Assembly: GCA_029004185.1 (NCBI GenBank)
Contig: JAQUPB010000003.1
Location: forward strand, 1 to 57,153
DNA: 57,153 bases
Reading direction: 5' to 3'
Source: Bacteroidales bacterium
Lineage (GTDB): Bacteria > Bacteroidota > Bacteroidia > Bacteroidales > JAHJDW01
In this document: positions 7,153 through 44,947 of the stretch, piece after piece
Layout: every line of letters starts with the position of its first letter
Numbering within the stretch: the stretch's first letter is position 1
Program-made: the position numbers and the translations under genes
The notes under the pieces: model-generated
Seen by the model: the letters and a program-made list of their open reading frames with translations, nothing else
Database searches by the model: none
Told to the model about the DNA's origin: nothing

Positions 7153-7163
7153 CTTTATAAAAT

Positions 7164-10160: not shown

Positions 10161-10207
10161 GGTAAAATTTTATTTTGAATTAATAATTATAATAAAATAT
10201 ATAAAAC

Positions 10208-10241
10208 AAACAGAGCGAAAAATAAGAATTCCGCTCTGTTT
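10208..10241 (-). terminator. intrinsic terminator-like hairpin downstream of the amidase gene
   Basis: Perfect 10-bp stem AAACAGAGCG / CGCTCTGTTT with a 14-nt loop. On the minus strand it is followed by GTTTTATATATTTT and sits 11 nt after the stop at 10252. Confidence 0.6.
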
Positions 10242-10251
10242 AATATTTCAG

Positions 10252-13356: not shown

Positions 13357-13549
13357 AGGTTGAAGATTTATAAATTTATAATCGGTTAATTTTTTAAAAT
13401 TATAATTGTATAAAAATAACACTTTATTTTCTAAGGAAACCCATATACCCATATACATTTCTATACATCGGCATAGACATTTTCTTACAATCTTTACTTT
13501 ATTATGTTTATTTGCCGGCAAACAAAAAAAATAATACCGGTTGGGTTTA

Positions 13550-20512: not shown

Positions 20513-21607
20513 TTATGAACATGCAAATCCAATTTTTTGCGGTTTTTTATTTTCAAATCCCATAGAGTTCATATTATAAATATCAGCCAAAGATATCGAA
20601 TTATCAATGCTTGCAGTTATGCCGATTTTTCCTGCAAGCTTTCGTGCTGTGTGTATTTCAAGTTCATTGAATTCATAACGGGCTATCATTCTTCCCTTGC
20701 GTAAGAGTGCACTGTCAATGTTTTTCAGGTTTGTATTGAATGTACAAATAATTTTGATTGCTAAAGAATCCGACAATAATCCGTCTGTGATGTTAAGCAG
20801 GTTTGAAATAATGTTTGAGCCATCGTTGCCGTTTTCGCGTTCCATTATTAGTTTCTCGCAGTCTTCGAGTATTAGTATTGACCTGTCATGATGTGATATA
20901 AAAGAAATAAATTCCGGTGATATAATACTTTCCAATAAAGCAGGTGGCATGTATATGAATTTTTTGTCAACGGAATTTATCAGATGTCGTATATAGGATG
21001 TTTTTCCGGTGCCATGTTTCCCATGTAGCATAATGATTCCGCCCTTCTTATCATCCCCTAAGGAATTAATGATTATTTTATGTATATTTCTGAAATCATC
21101 GTTGTAGTTATCTTCTATTGCAGTTTCACATGAGTTAACGCTAAGGTCGATTAATTTTAAATTGCTTTCTTGCCGTGTAATCATATAAAAGTTATTTTTC
21201 TTTGATATAGTTTTGAACTTTTGAGCCACTGCAATTATTTCAAGAACCTCTTTCCTGCTTATGTTTTTACCATAAAAAATTTCGACAGCGTACAAACTAA
21301 TGTAAACGCAAAGTGATTTCTTTAAAACAATAAATGTTCTTTCCTTTATTGTTTCCTGTGATTTTTTTCCGATGAATTCTTCAACAGAAATAATCTGCTC
21401 TTCGGTTATGTCGTATTTTTTTAATAATTCATTTATTAGTTTATCTACATCAAATCTGCTTGGAAAAATATTTTCATAACACATCGAAAATAATTCCCTA
21501 AATAACTGCACATATATCTTTCCCCATTTTAAATCGAAATAAGTTGACTGTAGTTCAACGTCATTTTCTTTTGATAAACTAAAATCATAAGTGTTTTTGT
21601 TTTTCAT
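20513..21607 (-). CDS. classical-clade AAA+ ATPase with an unknown N-terminal domain
   Basis: Walker A GKHGTGKTS, Walker B ILILEDCE, sensor-1 CTFNTN, Arg-finger region ALLRKGRM. Confidence 0.85.
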   Translation of the reverse strand: MKNKNTYDFSLSKENDVELQSTYFDLKWGKIYVQLFRELFSMCYENIFPSRFDVDKLINELLKKYDITEEQIISVEEFIGKKSQETIKERTFIVLKKSLCVYISLYAVEIFYGKNISRKEVLEIIAVAQKFKTISKKNNFYMITRQESNLKLIDLSVNSCETAIEDNYNDDFRNIHKIIINSLGDDKKGGIIMLHGKHGTGKTSYIRHLINSVDKKFIYMPPALLESIISPEFISFISHHDRSILILEDCEKLIMERENGNDGSNIISNLLNITDGLLSDSLAIKIICTFNTNLKNIDSALLRKGRMIARYEFNELEIHTARKLAGKIGITASIDNSISLADIYNMNSMGFENKKPQKIGFACS

Positions 21608-24458: not shown

Positions 24459-26465
24459 TTAATTTGTAATGAGGATTTTTTGAATTATTACTTCCGAATT
24501 TGTTTTTAATTGCAAAAAGTAAACACCTGCTTTTTGATTTTGTAAATCAACTTCCTTTGTTGCCTGTGTTATTTTTCCGGAATAGATTTTTTGTCCGACT
24601 GAATTATAAATATCAATTATTGCATTTTTCGGTGATTGAACAAAAAATCTGCCATTACTCGGATTTGGGAAAATGTTTATTCCTTTTAAATCTCCTATTT
24701 CATTTACCGACTGCGGAGCATTTGTAGCTACATTAGAACGGGAGGAATTATAGCTGACTCTTGTTGGGTTACATGCATTCGGATTAACAACTTCTACCTG
24801 ATAGTAAACAAATCCTGCAGGTGCAGTAAGATCGGAAAATGAAGTGTTGCCTGCTGTCGTGGAATTAATAAGAGTCAAATTACCGGGATTTGTGCCTCTG
24901 TATATGTCGTATGAAGAAACGGTAAATCCAACATAGTCATTCCAGATTAAATTCCAAGTAGTACCGGAACCTTGATTAATGTTGAGATGCATGGTTTTAT
25001 GAAATGCACTTGTATCCGTTCTATAACCGCATGAGTCTACCATTGATATTTTATAGCTTGCTGATTTTACCTGTGGAGCAGAGCTTGTATCAATGAAAAC
25101 GCTCAAACTATCATAAGGTCGGGATGCGATTTTACTATATACACCGGATACAGTTGTTTCTTTATAAATAATAAATGAATCTATCGGCAATCCGGTAGGT
25201 TTTTCCCATATAACCAAATTTTTACCGCTTGTACTATCAACGCTAACCATACAAATACTCGGCGTTGTCATTTTATCTACAAAAACCTTAATTGAATCAA
25301 CAGCAACACAACCGCTGTCATTGGTTGCGATTACGCTGTAAGTTGTGGATATACCGGGATTAGCTATTGGATTTGCAGTTGTATCATTATTCAATCCTGT
25401 TGACGGAAACCAAGAATATGTAAAAGGTGAATTAATATATTTTAATATTATACCATAAGGAGGCCCATCATAATTATATCCAATAGTATAACCCACGTTT
25501 TTATTTGGAAAATAAACTGAACGTAATTGAGAATTTGTACCACTATTTTGAGCGAACCAATTATCTCCTCCGTTAATAGTTTTTAGTATAATTTTATATC
25601 CAACAGCATAACCTGTGTTAACATCAGTAAAATAAACCGAATATAAAGTACCAGTTGTTCCGCTTGTTTGTGTCGTCCAGTTTAATCCGCCATTGGTCGT
25701 TTTTAAAATTGTTCCTGATTGTCCAACAATATATCCTGTATTGACATCAGGAAAATAAACTGAGTATAAATATTTATTAATTGTTCCGCTTGTTTGTGTA
25801 GTCCAGTTTACCCCACCATTTGTGGTTTTAAATATTGAGTCTTTAGGATCGCCAACAGCATAACCAATATTGACATCAGTAAAATAAACAGAACGTAAAG
25901 CATTGCTCGTTCCGCTTGTTTGTGTAGTCCAGTTTACTCCGCCATTTGTGGTTTTTATTATTATACCTTTATCACCAACGATATAACCAATGTTTTTATT
26001 TGGAAAATAAACTGAAAAGAGACAGTTTTTTGATGTTGAATCCTGCATTATCCAGTTCGTACCTCCATTCGTAGTTTTTAAAATGATTCTAGTAAAAGGA
26101 GGTGTATAAATATCTCTATATCCCACACAATAACCTGTATCCGTATCTGTAAAATAAATTGAACTTAATTGATATAGTGAATCTCCCGAAAATTGTTTTA
26201 CCCAACTTACACCACCATTCGTTGTTTTTAATATTTCATAATAATCAGTAATATAACCGGTATTTGTATCTGTAAAATAAACCGAAGTAAAAAATCCATT
26301 TGAGTCAGGACTTTGTAAAGACAACCATTTATTATTACTCCCGACTGCATTTAATTGTACTGATTGCCCGCAATTAATTGTTTTGTCAGAACCAGCATCA
26401 ACATTGCATTGAGCAAAAATATTTGTACTACCACATAATAGGGCGAATAGTAGAATTTTTTTCAT
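24459..26465 (-). CDS. T9SS-secreted BNR/Ycf48-like beta-propeller repeat protein
   Basis: Signal peptide MKKILLFALLCGSTNIFAQ. At least 7 repeats of K/TTTNGG.NW...SVYF. C-terminal IFPNPSNGRFFV...GVYFLQLK sorting domain. Confidence 0.85.
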   Translation of the reverse strand: MKKILLFALLCGSTNIFAQCNVDAGSDKTINCGQSVQLNAVGSNNKWLSLQSPDSNGFFTSVYFTDTNTGYITDYYEILKTTNGGVSWVKQFSGDSLYQLSSIYFTDTDTGYCVGYRDIYTPPFTRIILKTTNGGTNWIMQDSTSKNCLFSVYFPNKNIGYIVGDKGIIIKTTNGGVNWTTQTSGTSNALRSVYFTDVNIGYAVGDPKDSIFKTTNGGVNWTTQTSGTINKYLYSVYFPDVNTGYIVGQSGTILKTTNGGLNWTTQTSGTTGTLYSVYFTDVNTGYAVGYKIILKTINGGDNWFAQNSGTNSQLRSVYFPNKNVGYTIGYNYDGPPYGIILKYINSPFTYSWFPSTGLNNDTTANPIANPGISTTYSVIATNDSGCVAVDSIKVFVDKMTTPSICMVSVDSTSGKNLVIWEKPTGLPIDSFIIYKETTVSGVYSKIASRPYDSLSVFIDTSSAPQVKSASYKISMVDSCGYRTDTSAFHKTMHLNINQGSGTTWNLIWNDYVGFTVSSYDIYRGTNPGNLTLINSTTAGNTSFSDLTAPAGFVYYQVEVVNPNACNPTRVSYNSSRSNVATNAPQSVNEIGDLKGINIFPNPSNGRFFVQSPKNAIIDIYNSVGQKIYSGKITQATKEVDLQNQKAGVYFLQLKTNSEVIIQKILITN

Positions 26466-26542
26466 AAAATTATTTTATTTGCTCCAGTCCAAAAGCGATT
26501 TATAATATGTACAAATAAAAAACGTGGACTAAAACTATATCC

Positions 26543-26654
26543 GCCCTTAAGGTACTGGTATACCCATCATAGCAAATAAGTAAAGCCCACGCTTAACGTG
26601 AGCGTTCACTTATTATACTTGCTATGATCAAAAAATTACCAGTTTGTTAAGGGC
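26543..26654. repeat. 112-nt long imperfect hairpin (structured RNA, MITE-like or recombination site, undetermined)
   Basis: Nested pairings: GCCCTTAA/TTAAGGGC, ACTGGTA/TACCAGT, ATCATAGCAA/TTGCTATGAT (10 bp), ATAAGT/ACTTAT, ACGCT/AGCGT around the loop TAACGTG. Confidence 0.55.
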
Positions 26655-26884
26655 AAGAATAAAAGTTAACGCTTATTATTTTTTATAAAGAAAGAACGAT
26701 GATTCAATGCATTACAAAGATATGATTTTTTAGTTAAATTATAAAATTGTTTGATTTTTATTCGGTAATAAATACAGCAAAAAACGTACCATGAGGGATG
26801 GTGATGAGAAAATAAAAAAAATTATAAAATTGAAAAAATACTTACCTATCATATCAAGATAATAGTAACTGTCATGTCGTATTA

Positions 26885-28096
26885 TCATTTAAATAATGAA
26901 TTTACATCAAAGTCTTGGTTAAAATAGGTTTTATGGGTCGTGATATTATTTGCCTTAATCCCATAGTCAAATATAAAACGATTATAAATATTTTCAGGCA
27001 TGGGATCAATAATAATTACTTCGGGTGTATTTCTACGTTTATTAAATGCTCTCTTAAATAAAGTGTCCGTCTGAGTATCTGTTGCGGGGAAAGAATAACC
27101 TATAATAATTATTCGGTCAGCTTTAACTAATGATTCCTCCGCCTTGTTCCATAATTGTGAAAAAATATTTCCAAAGTATGAATAGTTTTTACACTTAACG
27201 GGTGGAATTATCAAGGGCATTGAGACCAATCCTTCAGAAGACGCTGTGGCTTCCGGCATCCCTTCAAGTATGATAGCAAAATTAATTAACAAATAGCCAT
27301 CGGGAATTTTTTCACCAATCAAGGGAAGATTCGGTGGATAGTATCCATAAGAATAATCCGCATACCCACTCATGAATCTTCCTTTGAAGGTATTATAAGG
27401 GTTTATGGTTGATTCATAAATATAAAAATCATCTATCGGTATTTCTTGTAGTGATTTTAGTTTATCTCCATCAGATCTTAAACAACTTGTTAACCAATTT
27501 GTAGATCCATGTAGTTTCAGAATAATTGGATAATCCTTTGTCTGGTTATCTTTCGCTTCAATCCATTGGTCCCTATAAACCTTTGTTGGCTTAACTAAAT
27601 AACCATTATCAGCGTTCCAATTACTTGTTTGTTTTAAAGCTCTATCCATTAATGTATCCCAATTAAATGTAATGATAATATCTTCCTTGGTTAAGTTTTT
27701 TGCCAAATTAAGATGTGATGCAGATGGTGGCCCATTTTGTATTTCATTAATTACACTTGCAAAAACGAAAATCAGTTGAATATAAGTTTTATAAATCAAA
27801 GTATTATCGGTACTATTGAAAATATTTTCTTTTTTTTCAAAGAGTTGGTTTAGCTTTTCTTCAACCTCACTGTGTAGTATCTCTATATCTTCATTATAGG
27901 TCAAGAAACCTGTCCAAGGAATATTATGAAAGTCCTTCAAGTAATTAGTGATGTCACCAATTAAAACCCAACGATTTTCTGCTATTCGGAGTTTGTGAAA
28001 TGTCTTAAAAAAATCCTTCGCAATAGGCATTTTTACTTTTGTCGGAGAGTCAATATAACTTTTTGATGCACCTGCACCAAGCAAAAACAAGTTCAT
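26885..28096 (-). CDS. SIR2-like (SIR2_2 family) protein, putative NAD+-consuming effector
   Basis: N-terminal LFLLGAGASKS, IITFNWDTLMD (Asn/Asp) and ILKLHGSTNW (His), the hallmark strings of defence-type SIR2 domains. Confidence 0.8.
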   Translation of the reverse strand: MNLFLLGAGASKSYIDSPTKVKMPIAKDFFKTFHKLRIAENRWVLIGDITNYLKDFHNIPWTGFLTYNEDIEILHSEVEEKLNQLFEKKENIFNSTDNTLIYKTYIQLIFVFASVINEIQNGPPSASHLNLAKNLTKEDIIITFNWDTLMDRALKQTSNWNADNGYLVKPTKVYRDQWIEAKDNQTKDYPIILKLHGSTNWLTSCLRSDGDKLKSLQEIPIDDFYIYESTINPYNTFKGRFMSGYADYSYGYYPPNLPLIGEKIPDGYLLINFAIILEGMPEATASSEGLVSMPLIIPPVKCKNYSYFGNIFSQLWNKAEESLVKADRIIIIGYSFPATDTQTDTLFKRAFNKRRNTPEVIIIDPMPENIYNRFIFDYGIKANNITTHKTYFNQDFDVNSLFK

Positions 28097-28133
28097 TTAT
28101 CAATTTTTACTGTGTATTAAATGCATGTGTTCA

Positions 28134-28799
28134 TTAGTGTTCATATTTTTTCTCTTTATCGTCTATTAGCCTCTCAAATTCCAGTCCAAGTATTTTTAAT
28201 TTTCTTGCAAAGGGAACAATAACAAGTCCAATGATTATAGCAATTATTCCAAGCCTTTCTGTTGTAATTGAAATACAACCTTTAAAATCAAAATAGAGAA
28301 GTAAAAAAATTATTGAAGCAAGAAACCAACAAATAAATCGGAACCAATTAAAAAATTTCTTTTTATCTTTTTCGTTTTTACTAACAGCTTTAGAAAGAAA
28401 ACTGTTCTTCAAATTTCTAAATTGTGGAATTGTAGGGATTAATTTCAAAACTTCTTTCCCATTATCTTCAGTTAAAAAATATATCTCAAATCCTTCGGTA
28501 TTGTCTGCCCCAAAAACTAAATAAAGTGGAATTGTATCATCTCCAAGAATTTCTGCGTATTTTTTAAGTTGTTCAATCGCAATATTTTCAGATTCCTTTC
28601 GTCTTTGTCTTTTGAACTCGAATAATGCAACAGGTCGTTTTGAAATATTATCAATTACGGCCATGTCTACACGGTATTTACTTGATACTTTCCACTCAAG
28701 CATTATGGATTCTTCTGGATATCCGTGCTGAATTAAAAAGTCAGTAACACGTTTTAAAATGTCTAAATCTCTTTCCATTATTTTTAGTTTTAAAATCAA
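28134..28799 (-). CDS. HSDR_N/Mrr-like PD-(D/E)xK-fold domain protein with two C-terminal TM helices
   Basis: GYPEESIMLEW...YRVDMAVID...PVALFEFKR (D...E-x-K). TM helices FRFICWFLASIIFLLLYF and LGIIAIIIGLVIVPFA. An alternative start lies at 28778. Confidence 0.65.
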   Translation of the reverse strand: MILKLKIMERDLDILKRVTDFLIQHGYPEESIMLEWKVSSKYRVDMAVIDNISKRPVALFEFKRQRRKESENIAIEQLKKYAEILGDDTIPLYLVFGADNTEGFEIYFLTEDNGKEVLKLIPTIPQFRNLKNSFLSKAVSKNEKDKKKFFNWFRFICWFLASIIFLLLYFDFKGCISITTERLGIIAIIIGLVIVPFARKLKILGLEFERLIDDKEKKYEH

Positions 28800-28881
28800 T
28801 CTAAATTCTATTCCCTCTTCTCACACTCCGCTATAGATTGTAAAAAATTAACAATATATGAGTTTACCTTTATTTTGTGTA

Positions 28882-30300
28882 TTACATATAAAAACTATAT
28901 CTTATTTGTGGCATTTCATTATCAGGAATATATTTAAGAATTTCTCCTACTTTTCTAGCACAATCCAATGTTACTGGATATTTTCTGTCAAATTGTGTGT
29001 TATTCCAATTCATTTTAGTTAATGTCAATATTTCCTCGCAAATTGTTAATGGAGATTCATTATTTTCAAACAATCTTATTTCAATTGGTTGTGGAATATA
29101 CATACCCGTATAGGTTTTATAATATTCTACAGAACCACGAGTATACAACAGGAATCTATTTTTTTCTAACTCCAAACATGTTCCTCTGTATGGAGGATAT
29201 AATCCATCACGAAAAAGCCGAATTTGACTATCTTGAATTGTTAAGAAATCATAAGTTGAAATACCTAACTCTTCAATTACTTTGGTAAAACCTTCAATTT
29301 CCTTTTCATTAAAGTTTGACGATTTATGCAATACCAATCGTGCCGGTAAGTTTTCAACTGCAATTTTATATTCTTTTAGTGCATTTAAAAGTAACTCATA
29401 AGCTTGTTCACTTTCTAAATGTGGGGTTCTGTCAAATTTATCTACAACGACCGGAGAGCCTCTAAGTATAATGCCATTACCTAATTCATTAAATATTTGT
29501 GCCAAACTTGTTTGCATTGTTTGTTTGTCCCTACTTCTATAAAACCCAATACCGACATAACAAACAGAAGGTTTATTTTCATTTTTTAACATTCGCCAGG
29601 GAATACCTTTGGCTTTATAATAAATTGCTGTACATAAATTCCACGCTCTTGTTGCGTCATCTTGAACACCTTTGTTATTTTTCAAACTATGTTCTTTTAT
29701 AATTTGAATAGGAATAGATAAGTGCATTGACTTTGCTTTCAAAGCCCGTCTGAAATCGTGTTCCAAGCTTTCCGTGTCAATATCTTCATCTAATTTATCT
29801 TCTTCTTGTTTTAAACTTTTTTTTGAAATTTTATTTTCAAACGATTTCGGCAATAAACATATAATAACATCAGGATTTTTATTTTGCGATAAGAAACGCA
29901 CTGCTTCATAATACATATCAACAGCTTGGTCAATTCTATCGTCTCTGCTATTTGTTGACAATATCGTATTTAATTCCTTTTTATTAATAGTTTTATTTAA
30001 ACTATCATCTGTTATTAATTTTGAACAAAACCCATTATGTTCGTTAAATCCAGCAAAAGAAACGAATAAGTTTGGTTGTTTTGAATTTTCTTTGGCAATA
30101 ATTGGTGCTTTGCAAATCTCAATCCACTCATTAAAAAGTTCAATATTTTCAGATATTCCAACAACACCAAGCTTAATTTCTTTTGGTTTGGTAATCATTT
30201 CATGGTCAAAAACATTATATTCTTTCATACCTGCACGAGGGCAAATATGATTACCTTTTCCAAATACCATTTGAGGTTCTTCTATAAAATTAAACTTCAT
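28882..30300 (-). CDS. short prokaryotic Argonaute (MID+PIWI only, catalytically inactive)
   Basis: FIEEPQMVFGKG N-terminus. MID pocket string HDFRRALKAKSMHLSIPIQII. AIYYKAKGIPWRM. CYVGIGFY and LVLHKSS occupy positions where active Agos carry catalytic Asp residues. The C-terminus ILTLTKMNWNN...PVTLDCARKVGEIL resembles the Maribacter SPARTA Ago as I remember it. Confidence 0.9.
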   Translation of the reverse strand: MKFNFIEEPQMVFGKGNHICPRAGMKEYNVFDHEMITKPKEIKLGVVGISENIELFNEWIEICKAPIIAKENSKQPNLFVSFAGFNEHNGFCSKLITDDSLNKTINKKELNTILSTNSRDDRIDQAVDMYYEAVRFLSQNKNPDVIICLLPKSFENKISKKSLKQEEDKLDEDIDTESLEHDFRRALKAKSMHLSIPIQIIKEHSLKNNKGVQDDATRAWNLCTAIYYKAKGIPWRMLKNENKPSVCYVGIGFYRSRDKQTMQTSLAQIFNELGNGIILRGSPVVVDKFDRTPHLESEQAYELLLNALKEYKIAVENLPARLVLHKSSNFNEKEIEGFTKVIEELGISTYDFLTIQDSQIRLFRDGLYPPYRGTCLELEKNRFLLYTRGSVEYYKTYTGMYIPQPIEIRLFENNESPLTICEEILTLTKMNWNNTQFDRKYPVTLDCARKVGEILKYIPDNEMPQIRYSFYM

Positions 30301-30301
30301 T

Positions 30302-31681
30302 TTAAAATTTTAGAGTTACTTGAATTTTGTCAGACAATACATTATTAACATCTTCTTTTTCATTCATAGACCAGCTATCATCATTAAGAATTGGGAACGA
30401 ATCGAAATTAACTATATCTCCAAAATCAATAAATTTATATTTATTACTAAATAGGTTATCTTCGTCCTTGTATTGCAAAAAGTGGCTAATAAATTTAACA
30501 TGATTAAACACATGCTGATTTCTTTCATTCCTTTTTAGATACGTTATTTTGTCTTTCTCATTATACAAAGGTTTTTTACCATCAAATGTAAATGCCCAGT
30601 CAGGAACAATACTAATATACCATTTATTCTCAATATCAATAAAAGCAATTTTAAAAGCAAAATGCTTGCAAGTGTAATATGTTTTCTCTTTCCACTCTCT
30701 TGAAGTTTGTTCAAAAACTGTTCGGGTTGCATCCTTTTTGCTGTGCCATTTTGCAACTCTTTTGCTTAAATTTTCATCTGGAGGCATGAACCTAAAATGA
30801 TTATAATTCTTTACCCATTCGACGCCCATTTTATACAATTTTTGTATTAAACAAAATTTAAGTAAAGTTTTGAAAACATTCTTATAATCATCATCAATAG
30901 AATAAAATTCGGATGTTGAAAATTCTTCAATTGTACCTGTATCTACAATATTATGTAATGGAATAGAGCTATTACTTATGTCATGAAAACTAACTATTTT
31001 ATTATTAAAACAAACCCAATCAGAAGAAAATTTTAAATTTTGTTGTTTTAATGCTTCATAAATAACTTCTCTATTAGTAGATTTTTTAAACAACTTTCTC
31101 TCGGAATTAATTGAGTTTTTTATAATTTCTTTCCTGTCTATATTTAAAGCCCCAATGAATATTTTTTGAGCAAAATCAATATTAATTAATGAAGAATATA
31201 ATTTTTCTGTATTTTGTTTTCGCTTTATTTTTTCTTCTTCAAATAATGTTAAAAGTGATTTTTGAATTTCATCTTTCAATTGAAAAGCACTATTAACTTC
31301 TTTCCAAAATTTTCCATCATAGATATTTCCAACTTTATTTGCAAAATCGTTTTGTTTTTGTTCTGTTTTTATTTTTTTTAAATTAAAAACAAGAATTGGT
31401 TTGCCTTCTCTGTCTGCAATAAACCACTCCTTTTCTGTTATTGAAACACCATCATCTAGTTCATACCCATATTTGCCACCCAATAATAAAATATAAACAT
31501 CAGCCTTGATAACTTCATTCAAGCAAACATCAATTGAATTTCTATTTTGGGCAATAAATGTGTTTTCACACATTGAGGGTTTGCAATTAATTTGTTCAAT
31601 GGCAAGCCGAGCAGCTTCTCTTTCATTCGATAAGTCAGAAACTGTTGAACTAACAAATATTATAGGCTTTACATTAAACAT
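30302..31681 (-). CDS. DUF4062 (TIR/deoxyribosyltransferase-like) - APAZ fusion protein, partner of the short pAgo
   Basis: N-terminal strings IIFVSSTVSDLSNEREAA, ADVYILLLGGKYG, SITEKEW and GKPILVF match the DUF4062 consensus. The C-terminal HFAFKIAFIDIENKWYISIVPDWAFTFDG resembles the APAZ core of TIR-APAZ proteins. The stop is 1 nt from the pAgo ATG. Confidence 0.8.
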   Translation of the reverse strand: MFNVKPIIFVSSTVSDLSNEREAARLAIEQINCKPSMCENTFIAQNRNSIDVCLNEVIKADVYILLLGGKYGYELDDGVSITEKEWFIADREGKPILVFNLKKIKTEQKQNDFANKVGNIYDGKFWKEVNSAFQLKDEIQKSLLTLFEEEKIKRKQNTEKLYSSLINIDFAQKIFIGALNIDRKEIIKNSINSERKLFKKSTNREVIYEALKQQNLKFSSDWVCFNNKIVSFHDISNSSIPLHNIVDTGTIEEFSTSEFYSIDDDYKNVFKTLLKFCLIQKLYKMGVEWVKNYNHFRFMPPDENLSKRVAKWHSKKDATRTVFEQTSREWKEKTYYTCKHFAFKIAFIDIENKWYISIVPDWAFTFDGKKPLYNEKDKITYLKRNERNQHVFNHVKFISHFLQYKDEDNLFSNKYKFIDFGDIVNFDSFPILNDDSWSMNEKEDVNNVLSDKIQVTLKF

Positions 31682-31916
31682 TTATTTTTTAAATATTATT
31701 TTTAATAAATTATTTTTTATTCTTTCATTAAGCTCTGCTTCATCTGCAATTTGTTTTTCTAAATCAGTTTTAAAATTTGCAAAACGCTTTGTAAAAATTA
31801 AAATCATCTTCATCATCGAGTAGACCAATATCTTTCTTTGCCATATTTACTGCTCTTTGTTTAATAAGTACAAATATACAAAATCGTCAGGAAAAAGGAA
31901 AGTAAAATGTTGATTA

Positions 31917-32336
31917 TTATTTGAATATGTTCTTTCGACTTATTCCCCACATTTCCGTTTGATTTGTTCCGGTGAATATGTATCCAGAACTATATGGACT
32001 TTTTGCCCTTACAATAATTGTATCGTTTATTTGTGATACCTCTTTCTGTACACCTTTCCTATCAAGCCGTAAACTTTCAATATTTTTTTCATATGGCTGT
32101 AACCACCTGCTTATGGTTTCCTCATCAAAACCGAGTAATTGAGCAATCGCCTTATAGGTAAGTCCTTCGAGCCATAATTGCAATGCTTTCGTTACAAAAT
32201 AGGAACTGTTCTTTTTAATTTTAGTTTTATCGGAAAATCGGTAGTTGCAGGCTTTATTCTTGCATTTATATAGTTGCCGGTCATTCCGGATTCCGTGCTT
32301 TATGATATTTTCAGAATTACAATTAGGACATTTCAT
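31917..32336 (-). CDS. InsA-like zinc-ribbon + HTH DNA-binding protein (IS1-type orfA-like, or a regulator)
   Basis: CPNCNS...YKCKNKACNYRF zinc ribbon followed by the HTH string LTYKAIAQLLGFDEETISRWL. No transposase catalytic ORF follows. Confidence 0.6.
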   Translation of the reverse strand: MKCPNCNSENIIKHGIRNDRQLYKCKNKACNYRFSDKTKIKKNSSYFVTKALQLWLEGLTYKAIAQLLGFDEETISRWLQPYEKNIESLRLDRKGVQKEVSQINDTIIVRAKSPYSSGYIFTGTNQTEMWGISRKNIFK

Positions 32337-32361
32337 ATAGTTATAAGTATATAAGTGAATA

Positions 32362-32520
32362 TATAACTATATATCTACGACACATGATAGGGATGGAACA
32401 CCCGTTAAAGCATATATCTAGGCCGCAAGGAAAGATATTTTCCTTGCACGAAAACTATTTCGGGAATATTAAAACACCGGAGAAATATAAAAGAAGAGAG
32501 AAAGAATATACAGGAAAATT
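32362..32520 (+). repeat. island repeat, copy A (long form, shared with copy C). Core at 32442-32488.
   Basis: CTATATATCTA...AACACCC..TTAAAGCATATATCT...9-bp hairpin GCAAGGAAA/TTTCCTTGC (32425-32447)...ACTATTTCGGGAATATTAAAACACCGGAGAAATAT. Confidence 0.7.
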
Positions 32521-32591
32521 ATTGTTTTGAAAGAGTTGTGCAACTGCCACAGATGTTGGCTGTCGTTTTTTCTTTTTTTTCCAATTTTATG

Positions 32592-34307
32592 TTATCCTTT
32601 ACCATTCTGATTAAATTCTGTCATTCCCGTTGTCCTTGCAGCAGCTGTAACTTCACCCCAGCCTGTAAAATAATTCTCAAAATATTTTATCGGAAATTGA
32701 CTGTTTTGTGTAACTTCTTCTTTTGTTGGTATGTGTCCTATCTGTTTGGAAATATTTTTAATTTCAAGTTGCAATGCTTTTTTGCTCACTTCATACTTCT
32801 GTTTTTTCAGTCGTGCAACCCGGCTGTTTTTCGCTTTTGGTTTGTCATCATTGATTTTACGAAAAGGGTCAAGTCCAGAACTTAACTCATTATGTCTCTG
32901 TGATGTGATGTTGTGATAATATTCCGAAAGTTCAATGCCTACAAACCTTCTATTTAATTGCTGTGCCGTCAAAGTTGTCGTGCCTGCTCCATTGAAAGGG
33001 TCTAGCACAAATTCGTTTTCGTTTGTGAATAGAGAAATCAATCTATACATAAACATTGGTGGCAACTGACAAGGGTGGTCAACTCTACGACTGTTGTGTT
33101 TTAAGCGGTGAATGTCCGACCAAACATTTGATGCCATTTCGCTATCTTTTATTTTTAGTCGCTTGCGTTTTGTAATGCAGTTTGCTCTGATACAAAAATT
33201 TTCCGATTGCATCTCAATCGCATTCTTTTCAAAAGACGTGTTTTTACTCCTTACAAGTGCCGGCAATGGTTTTGGTTTTCCTTTGCTAAAACATAAAATG
33301 GAATAATGTGAAGGCATAATCATACGCACTGGCATACTCAATCCTTCCCAAACAATCCAATCCTGATAATCAAGGATTCTGTTTAGATGCTTGAAATGTC
33401 TAACGCACCATTGTGGAATATTTAAAACCGCAAGCGTTCGCCCTGGTCTTAACACCCTTGCAAGTTCGCTTAACCATTGGTCGCACCATTCAAAATATTT
33501 TTGAATATCAATTCCATCATCCCAACTTTCATATTTTTTATTCAAGTTATATGGTGGATCTGCAAAACAAAAATCAATACTGTTATCAGGAATTTTTTTG
33601 AGTTGCCCAATGCAATCTCCATTTAGTAACTTCGATTTTTCAGAATAAATATTTTCTGTTTGCGGGTATTCTCCAAATGAATGTTTTTTATCTATCGGTT
33701 TGAAATATTTTCTCTGGTCATAAACATTTACAAACTTATATTGTGGCAAACCAAATAAATCGCAGAGGCGATTTACAACCCCACTTGGATAGCGTTCAAA
33801 GTCAACTGATATATCACGCCAAACATCTGACATTAAAGTTCCAAATTCGTGGTACAAATGTTTTTTTCCTCCATAATCTTTTGTTGTCTTGTCGCAACAA
33901 GGGCAGTATGTATAACCTATTCTTGTTTTGGTGTGATTTAAACTTTCTTTGTAACGAGTTATAATCAGCAATGCAGAATGACTGTCACTTAAATAATCCT
34001 CACGTTCAATTGGATTTGTAAGTTTAACAGCAATCCAAAGTTTTAAGTATGAATCATTTTTTAGTTGTGTACAAAAGTCATTCGCAAAAATTGGAGAAGT
34101 TAAAATTGCTATTGTAGAACGTTTATCTGTTCTACTTATAAAATCATTAAGTTGATTGAACAGGTTTTTCTTGTTGGGAACTTCTTCAAGCGATTTGTAG
34201 TATGGTAAAATAACAAACTCAACATTTGAAGATGTGGTTTTCACTTCTGCAATGTTGCTTTTTATATTTCGGTCTTTTAGCGATATGGCATTTTCGCTTA
34301 AATGCAT
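32592..34307 (-). CDS. beta-class N6A/N4C DNA methyltransferase with an extra N-terminal half-domain and a C-terminal homing-endonuclease-associated-type repeat
   Basis: Motif IV FADPPYN precedes motif I VLDPFNGAGTT (beta order). The N-terminal ~220 aa repeats the (S/D)VW(R/S)DI region with a degenerate TSPIF. The C-terminus reads IPTKEEV...YFENYFTGWGEVTAAARTTG. Confidence 0.9.
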   Translation of the reverse strand: MHLSENAISLKDRNIKSNIAEVKTTSSNVEFVILPYYKSLEEVPNKKNLFNQLNDFISRTDKRSTIAILTSPIFANDFCTQLKNDSYLKLWIAVKLTNPIEREDYLSDSHSALLIITRYKESLNHTKTRIGYTYCPCCDKTTKDYGGKKHLYHEFGTLMSDVWRDISVDFERYPSGVVNRLCDLFGLPQYKFVNVYDQRKYFKPIDKKHSFGEYPQTENIYSEKSKLLNGDCIGQLKKIPDNSIDFCFADPPYNLNKKYESWDDGIDIQKYFEWCDQWLSELARVLRPGRTLAVLNIPQWCVRHFKHLNRILDYQDWIVWEGLSMPVRMIMPSHYSILCFSKGKPKPLPALVRSKNTSFEKNAIEMQSENFCIRANCITKRKRLKIKDSEMASNVWSDIHRLKHNSRRVDHPCQLPPMFMYRLISLFTNENEFVLDPFNGAGTTTLTAQQLNRRFVGIELSEYYHNITSQRHNELSSGLDPFRKINDDKPKAKNSRVARLKKQKYEVSKKALQLEIKNISKQIGHIPTKEEVTQNSQFPIKYFENYFTGWGEVTAAARTTGMTEFNQNGKG

Positions 34308-34316
34308 TGTTTCGTT

Positions 34317-35330
34317 TTATTTATCTAAACTTAACAAGAATTTAGAAAGTTTATCAAGTTCACTGTCTTTCAATGTTACAGTGCAATCACTGAATTGGCA
34401 AAGAGTTCGTAGCGCTGATACCCGTTCAAAATTTCCCGCTCCGTCAATGATATATGCAATACAATGTCCATGTTTGTGTAATTGCCTCTGTCTATCTTGA
34501 GCTTGCCCTGCTTTACGTTCAATGACGCTATTTGTTGTTACTTGAAAGCATACTTCAATTGCACAATATTTGCCTTCCGGTGATGCTGCAACAATATCGT
34601 ATGAAAGTAATGTTCTTTTGTTCTGACTAATTTTTTGAATTTGTTTCTTTTTAAAATCCCATTTTGGTAATTTGTCTTCTAAATAGTCAACAACATATTT
34701 TTGTGCAAGATTACCAAGAGAATTTGCTGTTGCACCACCCGTAATTCGACTTACCCAAATATATCGCTGCTTAACAAATGTTTCAAGTTCTCTTTTATGT
34801 CCTATCAAAGTTCCAATAGTGCATTTCTCTTCAATTTCTGATGGTAAATTGTCTGCTAATGCTGCACCCCCAAATAATAGAAGATTAATAATATCTTCAA
34901 TTACTGGATTAAGTTTTTGATTAGTTACAAGTCCAACTCCATCAACTTTCAAATGAGTGTTACTCCAAGTTTTCTTTCCTGATAGTGTTTGAAATTTATA
35001 AGAATGGTTTTTCTCATTCCATACAAACTCCATTGTTTCCTTTTCAAAAAGTTTAGGGAGTTCCTTTTTGAACCGCATAAGTTTTTCACCACCGATGTCA
35101 GAAAGAACCATCAAATGTTTGAGAAATAAATTAGATGAAAGTTCCTTTGTTGTTTCTAAAACCTTCTTCCATGCAAAAGGTTCAGCATTTGCAATATTGA
35201 GTAAGCTGATAAATTTGTCTTGCGTTTCAATAAGTTTTGGAATTATACTCGAATTGCGTTCTGTTTCAGCTATTTTTGGTGGCCAAAATTTAAGTGCATT
35301 AGCCTCTAAGTCGTCAAGTTTTCTTATCAT
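34317..35330 (-). CDS. putative type II restriction endonuclease (cognate of the adjacent methyltransferase)
   Basis: Lies 9 nt upstream of the MTase gene on the same strand. Possible PD-(D/E)xK-like core LSYDIVAAS...YCAIEVCFQ. Assignment rests mainly on context. Confidence 0.5.
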   Translation of the reverse strand: MIRKLDDLEANALKFWPPKIAETERNSSIIPKLIETQDKFISLLNIANAEPFAWKKVLETTKELSSNLFLKHLMVLSDIGGEKLMRFKKELPKLFEKETMEFVWNEKNHSYKFQTLSGKKTWSNTHLKVDGVGLVTNQKLNPVIEDIINLLLFGGAALADNLPSEIEEKCTIGTLIGHKRELETFVKQRYIWVSRITGGATANSLGNLAQKYVVDYLEDKLPKWDFKKKQIQKISQNKRTLLSYDIVAASPEGKYCAIEVCFQVTTNSVIERKAGQAQDRQRQLHKHGHCIAYIIDGAGNFERVSALRTLCQFSDCTVTLKDSELDKLSKFLLSLDK

Positions 35331-35585: not shown

Positions 35586-36416
35586 CTATCCCTCCCAAAT
35601 TATACTTAAAATAGATTTTGTTCCGAAAACACAGTGTTCATTAAATTTTCTGCGTGTGTGGCTTTCAAAAACATTATCAAACCAATCAGATGCAAAAACT
35701 TCTTGGGTAGATTTTGATGTAACTTGATTATAAAAATAATCCCCGGCAACTGTATTTTCCGGTATTTTAATTTTACCATGCCTTAATGACCAATATGGAA
35801 AATCTTTGCTATAGCAATACCATGAAATTTTACCACCAACACTATAAACAACCATAATTGGATAATTTCCAATAATTGTAAATCTTATGGCTGTCGCTGT
35901 CAGGCTTACTTGATACTTTTTTGATAATTCACTAATAAGTTGAAAAGAAAATTTCCTTTTTAAGCAGTCGGTTTCAATTTTATTTTGTGGTAATAAAAGA
36001 CATGAAGCAAAATAATCTGCCTGTCTTTCTGCATAATTTTTTGAAGAAAAATCCGTAAAGCATGAATGACTTGGCGATAATCCTAACAACAAAGCATTTC
36101 TTTGTTCATCAATAAAAAAATGCCCTAATTCATGTGCAAAAGTAAATCTTGCCCTTTCAGTATATGCGTGTTCTAATCTATCAATGTTTATATAAATGTG
36201 AAAATCTTTATTAAAACACTCAATCATTCCATCAAATGAATCTTTATAGTTACCATAACTATATGAAATATTGTTTTCGCTTGCAATAACTTCAGGATTA
36301 ACGGCTCCATTATAGAAATAATAATTAGCGATACCCTCTGCTAACTCAGATAATATAAGTTTATCGGAATTTGTCAGAAAATTATTGTTTGTTTTTTGAC
36401 TGCTCTCTATCATCAT
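35586..36416 (-). CDS. ImmA/IrrE-family zinc metallopeptidase (DUF955) with a C-terminal extension
   Basis: RARFTFAHELGHFF (HExxH) and downstream ERQADYFASCLLLP. About 110 aa of extra C-terminal domain. Confidence 0.85.
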   Translation of the reverse strand: MMIESSQKTNNNFLTNSDKLILSELAEGIANYYFYNGAVNPEVIASENNISYSYGNYKDSFDGMIECFNKDFHIYINIDRLEHAYTERARFTFAHELGHFFIDEQRNALLLGLSPSHSCFTDFSSKNYAERQADYFASCLLLPQNKIETDCLKRKFSFQLISELSKKYQVSLTATAIRFTIIGNYPIMVVYSVGGKISWYCYSKDFPYWSLRHGKIKIPENTVAGDYFYNQVTSKSTQEVFASDWFDNVFESHTRRKFNEHCVFGTKSILSIIWEG

Positions 36417-36693
36417 TCATTTTTTTTCTTATTTCATCAGTAATAGCTTTTCCTTCACGTGCAGCCATTGATAAATTTTTTGTACTTTCAGTTGTGAGAT
36501 TTAAATTACTAATCTCAAGTTTTTTTATTTTACCTCTTTTGATAATGTTTATAGGGTTGTCCCAGTCTTCAGGAGTTTCTTTGTTAATGTCATTTGATTT
36601 TTCAAAAATTAAAATTTCATCTGCATTAGTAGGAAGCAATAATCCATTAGACTTAAACAATTCGCCTAAACTTATTTTCTTATCCTTTTGCAT
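36382..36693 (-). CDS. small hypothetical protein between the sigma factor and peptidase genes (candidate anti-sigma or peptidase substrate)
   Basis: 103-aa ORF overlapping the sigma-gene stop by 14 nt and the peptidase start by 35 nt, suggesting translational coupling. No motif recognised. Confidence 0.5.
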   Translation of the reverse strand: MQKDKKISLGELFKSNGLLLPTNADEILIFEKSNDINKETPEDWDNPINIIKRGKIKKLEISNLNLTTESTKNLSMAAREGKAITDEIRKKMNDDREQSKNKQ

Positions 36694-37333
36694 ATTTTAT
36701 AGATTTTAATTGTGAATATTTTGAAAAATATTCAATAATTTTTTTCTCGGATCGCACTTTAATTTGGCGTATATTTTCTTTTGTTATTCCAAAATAATTA
36801 CATAAATTATTTAGCACTTTAGAGGGTGTTTTTTTACCATCTTCTTGATATAAGTACAAAAAGCGTAAAACATCTCTATCTCTTTCGGGTAATGAATCAA
36901 GTGCATTTTTTAATATTTTAGCGTTTATGCTTTCTATATTTATATTATCTTTTTCTGCATCTATATATGTTTCAATAAAAACCGGTTCATTATTATCTGA
37001 TGTTTTTATATTAAGAATTTTAAAATCTTGAAGTAAGTCTTGAAGTTCATTTTTGGCAATTTGTAAAATCCAACCTTTAAATGCGTTGTCTGTGTTTTTT
37101 TGGGAATTATCAGGGGTTGTAAATAAAGGATTTTCATAAATAGCAAGAAAAGTATTATTTACAATTGCATTTAAAAATTGTTTATCGCGAATACCAAAGT
37201 TATTTTTTAAAACCGAATAAAGTAATTTGCTATATTCTTTGTATAAAATATTAAATGCAGATTCAGCATTTTTTATATTTTCTTCTTTATATGAAATAGA
37301 CAATAATAGTTCTTCTAATTTTTCTACTTCCAT
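36680..37333 (-). CDS. ECF-like sigma-70 family factor
   Basis: Region-2-like FNILYKEYSKLLY and FKGWILQIAKNELQD. Region-4-like LDSLPERDRDVLRFLYL...LCNYFGITKENIRQIKVRSEKKI. Confidence 0.7.
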   Translation of the reverse strand: MEVEKLEELLLSISYKEENIKNAESAFNILYKEYSKLLYSVLKNNFGIRDKQFLNAIVNNTFLAIYENPLFTTPDNSQKNTDNAFKGWILQIAKNELQDLLQDFKILNIKTSDNNEPVFIETYIDAEKDNINIESINAKILKNALDSLPERDRDVLRFLYLYQEDGKKTPSKVLNNLCNYFGITKENIRQIKVRSEKKIIEYFSKYSQLKSIKYAKG

Positions 37334-37352
37334 AATTGTAAAACTAAATTCC

Positions 37353-37383
37353 GTGACAAAGTTAAAAAAAATCTATCTGTCAC
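37353..37383. promoter_or_regulatory. inverted repeat GTGACA-N19-TGTCAC in the divergent promoter region
   Basis: Sits in the 93-nt gap between the sigma gene (start 37333) and the multiubiquitin gene (start 37427). Confidence 0.35.
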
Positions 37384-37426
37384 ACTTTTTAGTTTTATAA
37401 GTATTATTAATTTAATTTATATTATT

Positions 37427-37903
37427 ATGAAACAAAATTTACACAATGAAAAACTGCCTGCCTTGAAATTAATAATTGATGGCAAGCATTATGAATGGCA
37501 TCAGCAATATATTACAGGTGCCGAAGTTAGAAGATTAGGTAACATTCCCCGTGAGGATGAAATCTTTCTTAAAATTAAAGAACCTTGGGAAGATGAACCA
37601 ATAAGTGATGATACCAATGTTGATTTAGCCCGCCCCGGAATAGAACATTTTTTTTCTAAAGTGAAATTCCCTATTACAATTATTGTAAACGGTAGAGAAA
37701 AATCTTGGGGCGAAGAAAAAATTTCATACGAACAAGTTGTAAAACTTGCATTTGAAAACTACGTTGAAAATGCTGCTACTGCCTATACTGTAACGTATGA
37801 CAAAGGGCCTAGGCAAAACCCTGAAGGAACTATGGTTAAAGGTGATAACGTTTTTGTAAAAAATAAAATGAGATTCAATGTTACAGCAACTAATCAATCA
37901 TAG
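37427..37903 (+). CDS. multiubiquitin-type protein (two tandem beta-grasp Ubl domains)
   Basis: Two repeats of the pattern (I/V)I(I/V)(D/N)G+..W....I(T/S)..(E/Q)V..L(G/A): LIIDGKHYEWHQQYITGAEVRRLG and IIVNGREKSWGEEKISYEQVVKLA. C-terminus KNKMRFNVTATNQS. Confidence 0.75.
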   Translation: MKQNLHNEKLPALKLIIDGKHYEWHQQYITGAEVRRLGNIPREDEIFLKIKEPWEDEPISDDTNVDLARPGIEHFFSKVKFPITIIVNGREKSWGEEKISYEQVVKLAFENYVENAATAYTVTYDKGPRQNPEGTMVKGDNVFVKNKMRFNVTATNQS

Positions 37904-39059
37904 TCCTGATTTGAAGCAACTCAGGGATGAAGGGTATGAAATCGAGTATAGTGGTGGATATTTACTTATCCACCACATACCTTATGTAAACAACAATAAA
38001 GAAATAAAACATGGTACATTGGTAAGTGAGCTTACATTAGTTAGTAATACTAAAACAGCTGCACCGGCTAATCATGTTATTTATTTTATAGGGGAACACC
38101 CATGTAACAAGGACGGTAGTATTATTACTTCGATAAAACATACCAGCCAAAATAAAATATTGCATGAGGGAGTTATTATAAATCATTCCTTTTCGAATAA
38201 ACCGGCAAATGGTTATGCTAACTATTATTTTAAAGTTTCGAGGTATGCTGATATTATTTCGGCACAAGCAAAGGCTTTGGATAATAGCGTTACAGAAAAG
38301 ACCTTTAAAGTAGTACACGATAATAAAGAAGATTCGGTATTTCAATATCCTGACACCAATTCAAGTAGAGCAAACATTAATTTAATAAATTCTAAATTTA
38401 ACGAACAAAAGATTGCCATAATTGGATTAGGGGGTACAGGTGCTTATATTTTAGATTTAGTAGCTAAAACTCCAGTACAAGAAATACACTTGTTTGACGG
38501 TGATGTTTTTTTTCAACATAATGCTTTTCGCTCACCGGGTGCGGCTTCAAATGAGCAATTAGACAGAATAATGAAAAAAGTAATTTATTACTCTGAAATA
38601 TATTCTAAAATGCACAAAAATATTATTCCACATATTGAATATATAACAGATGATAATATTAATTGCTTGGATCAAATGTCTTTTGTATTTATATGCGTTG
38701 ATAAAAATAGTGCAAGAAAAATCATTATCGATAATCTTTTAAAAACAAATGTACCTTTTATTGATGTTGGGCTTGGTGTAAATGTTGTTGATGATAAATT
38801 AATAGGAACTTTAAGGGTTACAAATGGTAGCTCTATTAAAAATGACCATTTAATTAATAGAGTTCCAATGGAAGAAAACGATGTTATTAATGAATACGCA
38901 ACCAATATTCAAATAGCCGATTTGAATTCTTTTAATGCATCATTAGCAGTAATTAAATGGAAAAAAATAATCGGATTTTATCAAGATTTAAATAAAGAGT
39001 ATCATTGTTCATATTCAATTAATAATTCTAATTTTATTAATGAAGACATTACGGCATAA
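37878..39059 (+). CDS. ThiF/E1-like adenylyltransferase with an uncharacterised N-terminal domain
   Basis: Rossmann string KIAIIGLGGTGAYILDLVAKT...HLFDGDVFFQHNAFRSPG. Overlaps the Ubl gene by 26 nt. The N-terminal ~170 aa (YLLIHHIPYV...) is unassigned. Confidence 0.85.
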   Translation: MLQQLINHSPDLKQLRDEGYEIEYSGGYLLIHHIPYVNNNKEIKHGTLVSELTLVSNTKTAAPANHVIYFIGEHPCNKDGSIITSIKHTSQNKILHEGVIINHSFSNKPANGYANYYFKVSRYADIISAQAKALDNSVTEKTFKVVHDNKEDSVFQYPDTNSSRANINLINSKFNEQKIAIIGLGGTGAYILDLVAKTPVQEIHLFDGDVFFQHNAFRSPGAASNEQLDRIMKKVIYYSEIYSKMHKNIIPHIEYITDDNINCLDQMSFVFICVDKNSARKIIIDNLLKTNVPFIDVGLGVNVVDDKLIGTLRVTNGSSIKNDHLINRVPMEENDVINEYATNIQIADLNSFNASLAVIKWKKIIGFYQDLNKEYHCSYSINNSNFINEDITA

Positions 39060-42667: not shown

Positions 42668-42705
42668 TAGTTTGTTTTTTTAATAAAGCGAAACTTATCA
42701 ATTTG

Positions 42706-43503: not shown

Positions 43504-43553
43504 ATTAAAAGCTTTATTTTATTACTACTTTTTTACCTTAAACTTGAACTTCT

Positions 43554-44783: not shown

Positions 44784-44947
44784 TTGCTTTTTTCAATTTT
44801 GCAAATTTATTTTAATTTTTGTTTGTTCCATATTATAAAAGACAATATTTTACTCTATTCTGTTGCAATGAATAAAAAAAACTGCCCATATATTAACAAA
44901 ATATATAAGCAGCTTTATAATTCAATTTAAAAGCATTAACTTAAATT

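Follow-up and report, generated by a model that had tools for sequence, protein, structure and literature searches.

A DUF4062-APAZ protein paired with a short prokaryotic Argonaute, and its neighbouring genes, in a Bacteroidales genome segment

Do four adjacent genes on a contig from a Bacteroidales bacterium constitute a single Argonaute system with several effectors, or do separate systems merely lie side by side there? The stretch of DNA that we analysed, termed the window, is 57,153 nucleotides (nt) long (contig JAQUPB010000003.1, assembly GCA_029004185.1). A first-pass annotation made from its letters had drawn attention to four open reading frames (ORFs) on the minus strand, numbered here in the direction of transcription. 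Gene 1 encodes a DUF4062 domain fused to an APAZ body, gene 2 a short prokaryotic Argonaute (pAgo), gene 3 a membrane protein with a PD-(D/E)xK-like domain, and gene 4 a SIR2 protein. The coordinates of these co-directional ORFs (Table 1) and the gaps of 1, 82 and 37 nt between genes 1 and 2, 2 and 3, and 3 and 4 were confirmed. The annotation went on to propose that all four genes form a multi-effector or relay architecture. We instead conclude, with a probability of roughly 80%, that three independent modules adjoin at this site: the pair formed by genes 1 and 2, gene 3, and gene 4.

Distribution of the four genes among related loci

The argument for one short-pAgo system begins with gene order. 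A sensor made by genes 1 and 2 would drive the membrane nuclease and the SIR2 protein, either directly or via a signal made by the TIR-like head of gene 1. The genes are closely spaced, with gaps of 1, 82 (or 103, depending on the start of gene 3) and 37 nt, and the transcription signals do not divide them. Specifically, intergenic DNA matches the Bacteroidota -7 promoter box TAnnTTTG at only two sites, one preceding gene 1 (31878) and the other preceding the next gene beyond gene 4 (26722). The hairpin downstream of gene 4 is the sole terminator-like one on the minus strand within 26400-32600, and the gaps between genes 2 and 3 and between genes 3 and 4 contain neither a -7 box nor a hairpin. 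The TAnnTTTG box was used in place of the sigma-70 consensus, with which 40 sites were found where 36 were expected; that scan was uninformative, the host belonging to the Bacteroidota as judged from the proteins in the window that carry type IX secretion system (T9SS) sorting domains (Por_Secre_tail). From these signals it is predicted that the four genes may be co-transcribed at this locus. Furthermore, a precedent exists in the three-gene SiAgo-Aga1-Aga2 system of Sulfolobus, a pAgo locus with a separate membrane effector, Aga2, which is reported to work with the pAgo (bioRxiv 10.1101/2021.12.09.471704).

Comparison with related loci points the other way. Using the pAgo as a query over one genome per species, we recovered 80 loci in which the pAgo is 48-59% identical to that of the window; 66 of these extend at least 2.5 kb beyond the pAgo gene. 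A large protein database supplied two closer relatives, L170 (86% identical) and L171 (63%), bringing the set to 82 loci and 1.4 Mb, as well as an identical contig (L172) that represents the same locus as the window. Examining the neighbourhoods of pAgo homologues was a check that the first-pass annotation had itself suggested, and a lack of linkage was an outcome that it had named as fatal to its proposal. Searches of all 82 loci with blastp and with profile hidden Markov models (HMMs) at E <= 1 detected relatives of neither gene 3 nor gene 4, the positive controls for the profile HMMs scoring 1e-107 and 1e-203. The pAgo gene is directly preceded by an APAZ gene in 81 of the 81 loci with an intact upstream flank (the 80 scan loci and L170), the partner gene of L171 being cut by the end of its contig. 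According to Koopal et al. (2022; PMC9097488), short pAgos have a specific association with the APAZ protein and with no other. A DUF4062-type head is present in 15 of the 80 scan loci, where the genes downstream differ from locus to locus, and no conserved third gene stands beside the 17 DUF4062-APAZ/pAgo pairs.

We also searched in the reverse direction. A metagenome scan together with one look-up yielded 82 loci with relatives of gene 4 (29-73% identical); the upstream flank reaches 800 bp or more in 60 of them and 4 kb or more in 33. None of the 82 contains a pAgo, an APAZ domain, a DUF4062 head or a relative of gene 3. The 14 loci that carry relatives of gene 3, which represent four different contexts, contain no pAgo, APAZ or SIR2 gene. 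Beyond the window and the identical contig, no locus with all four genes was found.

Because the genes do not co-occur in 82 pAgo, 82 gene 4 and 14 gene 3 loci, a four-gene system is not supported, and the multi-effector Argonaute claim should be dropped; genes 1 and 2 alone form a unit. In addition, the Pfam scan found in gene 3 and gene 4 no match to a signal-sensing family such as SLOG, SAVED or CARF. Gene 3 also differs from Aga2 of the Sulfolobus system in that it is not conserved beside any related pAgo. A conserved four-gene system would have been a new architecture, but on this evidence we regard it as highly improbable.

The same loci bear on the idea that genes 3 and 4 form a two-gene defence system of their own, a membrane nuclease plus a SIR2 protein, separate from the pAgo pair. 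Both proteins have defence-like folds, and the 37 nt that separate their genes hold no promoter box. However, a gene 3 relative occurs in none of the 60 gene 4 loci whose upstream flank reaches 800 bp or more, a SIR2 gene occurs in none of the gene 3 loci, and the closest relatives of each protein (72-74% identical) occur alone. Such a system is the least probable of the alternatives that we weighed.

The limits of the conserved unit are visible in the comparison with L170, whose partner protein is 74% identical to gene 1. Homology detected by blastn covers window positions 31831-28883 only, which comprise about 150 nt of leader and genes 1 and 2, and it ends at the pAgo stop codon. Beyond that codon L170 encodes HsdS (the S subunit of a type I restriction-modification (R-M) system), a small ORF, a helicase of 1268 amino acids (aa) and a reverse transcriptase, whereas in the window genes 3 and 4 occupy the place held by hsdS. 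The pAgo gene of L171 is followed by an HD_assoc gene. On the other side, the gene that precedes the pair in L170 encodes an intact HsdM C-terminus, which aligns with window positions 31682-31840 on the minus strand; the leader of the window is a frameshifted 3′ remnant of hsdM. Next to this remnant is a fragment of an IS1-family transposase (31917-32336; 139 aa, the zinc-finger and helix-turn-helix part only). The remnant and the IS1 fragment upstream, together with the end of L170 homology at the pAgo stop codon, indicate that the two-gene unit has been rearranged on both sides in the window. A 44-aa ORF that abuts gene 1 was considered as a leader peptide and rejected, since it lies within the frameshifted hsdM remnant.

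A rearranged setting admits two further explanations. The rearrangement could have put genes 3 and 4 behind the pair, on one transcript, where they were recruited as extra effectors; if true, a multi-effector pAgo system would have been caught at its birth. Functional recruitment of this kind, restricted to one lineage, may be compatible with the absence of linkage elsewhere. Possible read-through, however, is adjacency in a defence island and not evidence of a shared mechanism or a conserved architecture, and we rate a newborn system as no more probable than a conserved one. Alternatively, the pAgo pair might be a decaying, functionless relic of a rearranged type I R-M locus, as the hsdM remnant and IS1-family fragment directly upstream and the missing downstream hsdS could suggest. 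Against such decay, neither ORF is disrupted or truncated, only 1 nt separates the stop codon of gene 1 from the pAgo start codon, and the residues that are invariant in the family are present (E85 of gene 1; R184, R185, K188 and Q199 in the MID domain of gene 2). A relic is therefore very unlikely, and an intact two-gene unit beside two independent genes remains our preferred description.

Several DUF4062-APAZ/pAgo pairs appear to lie inside type I R-M operons. In L170 (1-4545) the pair stands between hsdM and hsdS, as annotated with Pfam. In two further loci (L068, 7483-11425; L078, 4919-16262) it follows an S-subunit-like gene, and in L078 an HsdR-like gene lies further downstream; these neighbouring ORFs were judged by their N-terminal sequences.

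The DUF4062-APAZ protein and its Argonaute partner

What, then, does the two-gene unit encode? Gene 1 had been described as a non-canonical DUF4062-type head on an APAZ-like body, and profile searches agree: residues 8-87 match Pfam DUF4062 (E 1.2e-22), and residues 144-444 match the PADLOC APAZ models 'Aga_REase-PNTD1-PNTD2' (E 2.4e-75). In the Pfam scan the head gave no match to TIR or TIR_2 at E <= 1, to any other Pfam family of the TIR superfamily, or to DUF4365 (DREN). Among PDB entries the body resembles the DREN-APAZ protein of SPARDA (9jsb_D, E 6e-11), and the head resembles the DUF4062 NADase of KpSwz (10wc_A, E 5e-9), a likeness limited to residues 8-98.

DUF4062 has been established by experiment as a TIR-like NADase domain with a catalytic glutamate, E97 in KpSwz and E1008 in TEP1, and both proteins hydrolyse NAD+ to ADP-ribose (ADPR) and nicotinamide (bioRxiv 10.64898/2026.05.01.722283). 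The candidate catalytic glutamate of gene 1 is E85, within the motif SITEKEW. This residue pairs with the alanine of the KpSwz E97A construct in the alignment with 10wc_A, and it is invariant in 17 of 17 DUF4062-APAZ proteins, in which the motif reads SITE-x-E. Among 1.84 billion representative proteins, searched exhaustively, gene 1 has 4035 relatives. The DUF4062-APAZ architecture is rare, given that only about 10 of the best 150 of these relatives cover both the head and the APAZ body.

Gene 2 matches the PADLOC model pAgo_I (455 positions) from end to end with an E value of 3.7e-186, and, as the first-pass annotation had stated, its 472-aa product consists of MID and PIWI domains only. It has no N or PAZ domain and aligns over its full length with solved short pAgos. 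The best of these is the SPARDA short pAgo 9qbp_B (E 3.7e-89); SPARDA pAgos as a group score from 1e-79 to 1e-89, and SPARTA pAgos about 1e-38. The Pfam Piwi model fails to detect the protein. NCBIfam provides no name for gene 2 or for the products of the other three genes.

The annotation had further held that gene 2 cannot slice, citing GIGF and HKSS at the positions of catalytic residues. Both motifs are present, at residues 250 and 325, and across 83 of 83 clade members position 252 is G, A or S and position 327 is S or T, never an acidic residue. We take G252 and S327 to correspond to two of the DEDX positions, an assumption that draws on motifs of eukaryotic Argonautes and not on an alignment with active ones. 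On this assumption the PIWI domain is predicted to be inactive and devoid of slicer residues. The DEDX tetrad is lacking in all short pAgos (Koopal et al., 2022; PMC9097488). In the MID domain, the string H..K...P.Q that had been reported does not occur as written; the sequence reads K190..H193...P197.Q199, and the pocket residues R184, R185, K188, P197 and Q199 are invariant in the 83 clade sequences.

As judged from sequence, genes 1 and 2 represent a short-pAgo pair of clade S2B and a head-swapped member of its nuclease-headed (SMEK/Mrr-like) lineage. This placement by best matches follows from three findings: SPARDA chains are the best PDB matches of both proteins, the APAZ models that match gene 1 are of the restriction endonuclease (REase) type, and most related partners carry SMEK_N heads. 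Specifically, a Pfam scan (E <= 1e-3) of 75 partner proteins, including that of the window, identified 54 SMEK_N, 17 DUF4062, two EAD8 and one Trypsin_2 head, and a second trypsin-type head matched at E 1.3e-3. Because heads of the SMEK_N, DUF4062, EAD8 and trypsin-like types occur on these partners, heads appear to have been exchanged on a common APAZ/pAgo chassis. The pAgos associated with DUF4062 heads, L171 included, form one clade in a neighbour-joining tree computed without bootstrap values.

The rarer heads deserve separate mention. Trypsin-like peptidase heads on APAZ were seen in Spirosoma and Rudanella (L021, 8472-10004; L034, 8439-10004; Trypsin_2 E 1.8e-7 and 1.3e-3), and EAD8 adaptor heads in Microcoleus (L015, 109-1407; L017, 3163-4461; E 3e-6). 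Neither a protease-headed nor an adaptor-headed APAZ was among the heads in the literature that we found. An EAD8-headed APAZ would imply that the effector is recruited in trans.

Published surveys have probably encountered the DUF4062 architecture before. S2B partners are known to carry various heads (Koopal et al., 2022; PMC9097488), and a later survey lists, without characterising it, 'a subgroup of TIR effectors' within S2B (Prostova et al., 2023), which is probably the DUF4062-APAZ group; the architecture has most likely been seen in such surveys. A preprint of September 2026 in which DUF4062 is renamed 'NIR' may also mention it, the terms 'APAZ', 'S2B' and 'short prokaryotic Argonaute' each occurring once in its text (bioRxiv 10.64898/2026.09.04.749371).

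Three groups of known systems offer the closest comparisons. SPARTA (S2A; PMC9097488) is likewise a two-gene system of a pAgo and an APAZ partner whose head is a TIR-superfamily NADase with a catalytic glutamate, and the same logic of guide-dependent target DNA binding, oligomerisation, NAD(P)+ depletion and abortive infection would be expected of genes 1 and 2. The two differ in the head, which is DUF4062 (PF13271) in gene 1 and a canonical TIR domain (IPR000157) in SPARTA, and in descent, which is S2B versus S2A; the pair would act as SPARTA does without being a member of it. The combination of a DUF4062 head with an S2B pAgo and APAZ body suggests that the NADase head was acquired independently of SPARTA.

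Both the pAgo (48-59% identity) and the APAZ body have their closest relatives in the S2B systems with SMEK/Mrr-like- or DREN-APAZ partners, which share the operon layout (SPARDA: PMC12205087 and bioRxiv 10.1101/2023.06.08.544223; SMEK system: cited in PMC10810196). Their head is a nuclease, whereas that of gene 1 is a TIR-like NADase domain; without a DREN head, the pair is not a SPARDA system. The third comparison is with Swarozyc (KpSwz; bioRxiv 10.64898/2026.05.01.722283), whose DUF4062 head is homologous to that of gene 1, with the F-V-S-S-T, LGGxYG and TExE motifs kept. KpSwz is a single protein in which the head is followed by a helical stalk and an auxiliary C-terminal domain that binds and senses the phage portal. 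In contrast, the head of gene 1 is fused to APAZ and paired with a pAgo.

The mechanism that we propose for the pair follows from these comparisons by analogy. In SPARTA, SPARSA, SPARDA and SPARHA, guide-dependent binding of target DNA activates the head fused to APAZ via oligomers or filaments (PMC9097488, PMC12205087, PMC12738770). The pAgo and the APAZ body of gene 1 would likewise form a heterodimer that loads a small guide, probably a 5′-phosphorylated RNA bound by the invariant R/R/K/Q pocket of the MID domain. Pairing of the guide with complementary DNA of an invader would trigger oligomerisation, which in turn would free the DUF4062 head from auto-inhibition and permit it to deplete NAD+. 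Dormancy or abortive infection would be the expected outcome.

A different role for the head is conceivable. Some bacterial TIR domains produce signalling isomers of ADPR, as in Thoeris, and the DUF4062 head might similarly make a nucleotide signal, or serve as a scaffold, and so bring in an effector whose gene lies elsewhere. The two relatives in the same pAgo clade with EAD8 adaptor heads lend this idea some plausibility, since they imply recruitment in trans. However, KpSwz and TEP1 convert NAD+ to plain ADPR and nicotinamide, and the 17 DUF4062-APAZ/pAgo pairs have no conserved third gene at their side. We consider a signalling or scaffolding head unlikely, and a head that would itself deplete NAD+ remains the reading that we favour.

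In addition to the undivided transcription signals, the possible co-transcription and the possible recruitment of genes 3 and 4 described above, several points weigh against our interpretation. We infer the type of guide, the oligomerisation, the activation of the NADase and the abortive-infection outcome from related systems. What activates KpSwz is a phage portal, sensed by that protein's own C-terminal domain; activation of a DUF4062 head through APAZ and a pAgo is an extrapolation from it. The tree that groups the DUF4062-associated pAgos lacks bootstrap support, and we found no experimental work on a DUF4062-APAZ/pAgo pair in the literature.

If the proposal is correct, a DUF4062 NADase head has replaced a nuclease head on the S2B short-pAgo chassis, and a SPARTA-like NADase Argonaute would have arisen a second time, independently. 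The NADase activity of DUF4062 was demonstrated only in 2026, and the pair would link this group of enzymes to nucleic-acid-guided immunity. The clade should also be useful for asking how one APAZ/pAgo platform can activate SMEK, DREN, HNH and DUF4062 heads, and possibly trypsin-like and EAD8 heads as well.

Table 1. Coordinates of the features described at the locus (window numbering).
Feature	Position	Strand	Basis
Gene 1, DUF4062-APAZ protein, 459 aa	30302-31681	-	ORF
Gene 1 head, aa 1-140, DUF4062 (TIR-like NADase domain)	31262..31681	-	Pfam, PDB match, conservation
Gene 1 APAZ body, aa ~141-459, and stop codon	30302..31261	-	PADLOC, PDB match
Gene 2, short (MID+PIWI) pAgo of clade S2B, 472 aa	28882..30300	-	PADLOC, PDB matches, conservation
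Gene 3, PD-(D/E)xK-like N-domain, two transmembrane helices and C-terminal motif PFARKLKILGLEFERL	28134..28778	-	Pfam, family alignment, predicted structure
Gene 4, standalone defence-type SIR2 protein (candidate NADase), 403 aa	26885..28096	-	Pfam, homologues, predicted structure
Leader, ~150 nt common to L170, frameshifted 3′ remnant of type I R-M hsdM	31682..31831	-	blastn, alignment to L170 HsdM
Candidate Bacteroidota -7 promoter box TATATTTG	31871..31878	-	TAnnTTTG motif scan, consensus match only
Terminator-like hairpin downstream of gene 4	26585..26603	-	consensus match only

The neighbouring genes 3 and 4

Gene 3 had been called as a 221-aa ORF that begins at a TTG codon (28134-28799) and described as an HSDR_N/Mrr-like protein with two transmembrane helices. 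The description stands, and the length most likely does not. Every homologue starts with 'MERE' or 'MERD', which places the true start most likely at the ATG at 28778 (M8), giving a protein of 214 aa and a gap of 103 nt to the pAgo gene. The match to Pfam HSDR_N_2 is weak (E 1e-5, just above the cut-off); the D...ExK triad formed by D45, E61 and K63 is conserved within the family, and hydrophobic segments span residues ~151-171 and 181-202. An AlphaFold model with a predicted local distance difference test (pLDDT) score of 82.6 shows an alpha-beta-beta-beta-alpha core followed by two long helices. When compared with the PDB by Foldseek, this model matches the nuclease domains of BsaXI and BpuSI, Hjc and other restriction-endonuclease folds, weakly in each case (E 8e-3 or worse). 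No PDB relatives were found at the sequence level, and the family has no PADLOC or NCBIfam match.

The gene 3 family comprises 25 proteins, and its best conserved part is the almost invariant C-terminal motif PFARKLKILGLEFERL. Relatives (36-74% identical) lie beside a HEPN_RiboL-PSP gene, after an HATPase_c_3 gene, by Archease/RtcB or by a DUF4468 gene, these being the four contexts counted above. The best explanation is that gene 3 encodes a standalone, membrane-anchored PD-(D/E)xK-like protein that is no component of the pAgo system, and it is an ordinary candidate for single-gene defence screens.

For gene 4, the SIR2_2-type assignment and the intact motifs reported earlier hold. The protein matches Pfam SIR2_2 (E 3.8e-8) and carries GAGAS at residue 7, TFNWD at 143 and KLHGS at 194, with N145, D147 and H196 invariant in 44 homologues. 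Its predicted structure (pLDDT 91.8, predicted template modelling score 0.90) best matches the SIR2 subunit of SIR2-HerA (E 1e-8), followed by Avs5, DSR2 and ThsA (to 3e-4). Sequence-level relatives in the PDB were not found, and PADLOC gave only weak, generic SIR2 matches. Gene 4 thus has the fold of SIR2-HerA, Avs5, DSR2 and ThsA, with the GAGxS, N-x-D and H motifs kept, but it differs from them in having no HerA, STAND, SLOG or other partner or sensor domain. The family contains 902 homologues, which are standalone SIR2 proteins of ~400 aa. It spans the Bacteroidota, Firmicutes, Acidobacteria and other phyla, and a beta-rich insert at residues ~170-300 is conserved.

A Pfam scan of 148 proteins neighbouring gene 4 relatives in 33 loci found no recurrent family; the neighbouring genes belong variously to defence, mobile elements and housekeeping. 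DNA polymerase I, present in 10 loci, was considered as a partner and rejected as synteny among closely related genomes. No HerA-like gene stands beside gene 4 in the window, and HerA is not among the 25 commonest neighbour families of the 33 loci. We regard gene 4 as a standalone SIR2-type candidate NADase and not as a component of the pAgo system. It belongs to a large, uncharacterised family and is likewise an ordinary candidate for single-gene defence screens.

Genomic setting

The first-pass annotation had also placed the locus in an AT-rich defence island next to an R-M system, and this observation holds. The GC content is 26-33% over ~13-45 kb of the window, versus ~35-43% in most of the flanking sequence, and a BanI-type REase (E 5.7e-127) and its methylase adjoin the four genes (32592-35330). 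This AT-rich block (13000-45000) fits an integrated defence island; a tRNA gene was not detected anywhere in the window.

The block begins near a tyrosine integrase (14310-15539). Besides the BanI-type pair it contains a PIN_4 protein (17482-18378) and an AAA ATPase (20513-21607), the latter followed by a 169-aa zinc-ribbon-like ORF. Beyond the R-M pair, a capP/capH-like regulator pair lies on the minus strand at 35586-36693 (PADLOC capP E 8e-63, capH E 2.7e-5), beside a sigma-70 region-4-like gene (36680-37333). Facing it on the plus strand is a divergent pair (37427-39059) that encodes a Multiubiquitin protein (PF14452) and a DUF6791-ThiF E1-like protein. The region from 35586 to 39059 looks like a ubiquitin-like conjugation defence module with CapH/CapP-type control.

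Numerous secreted proteins with T9SS sorting domains are encoded elsewhere in the window, at 3508-13521, 24459-26465 and 41444-52750. They include a 2600-aa subtilase-type protein, a GH18/CUB protein and an amidase/CUB protein.

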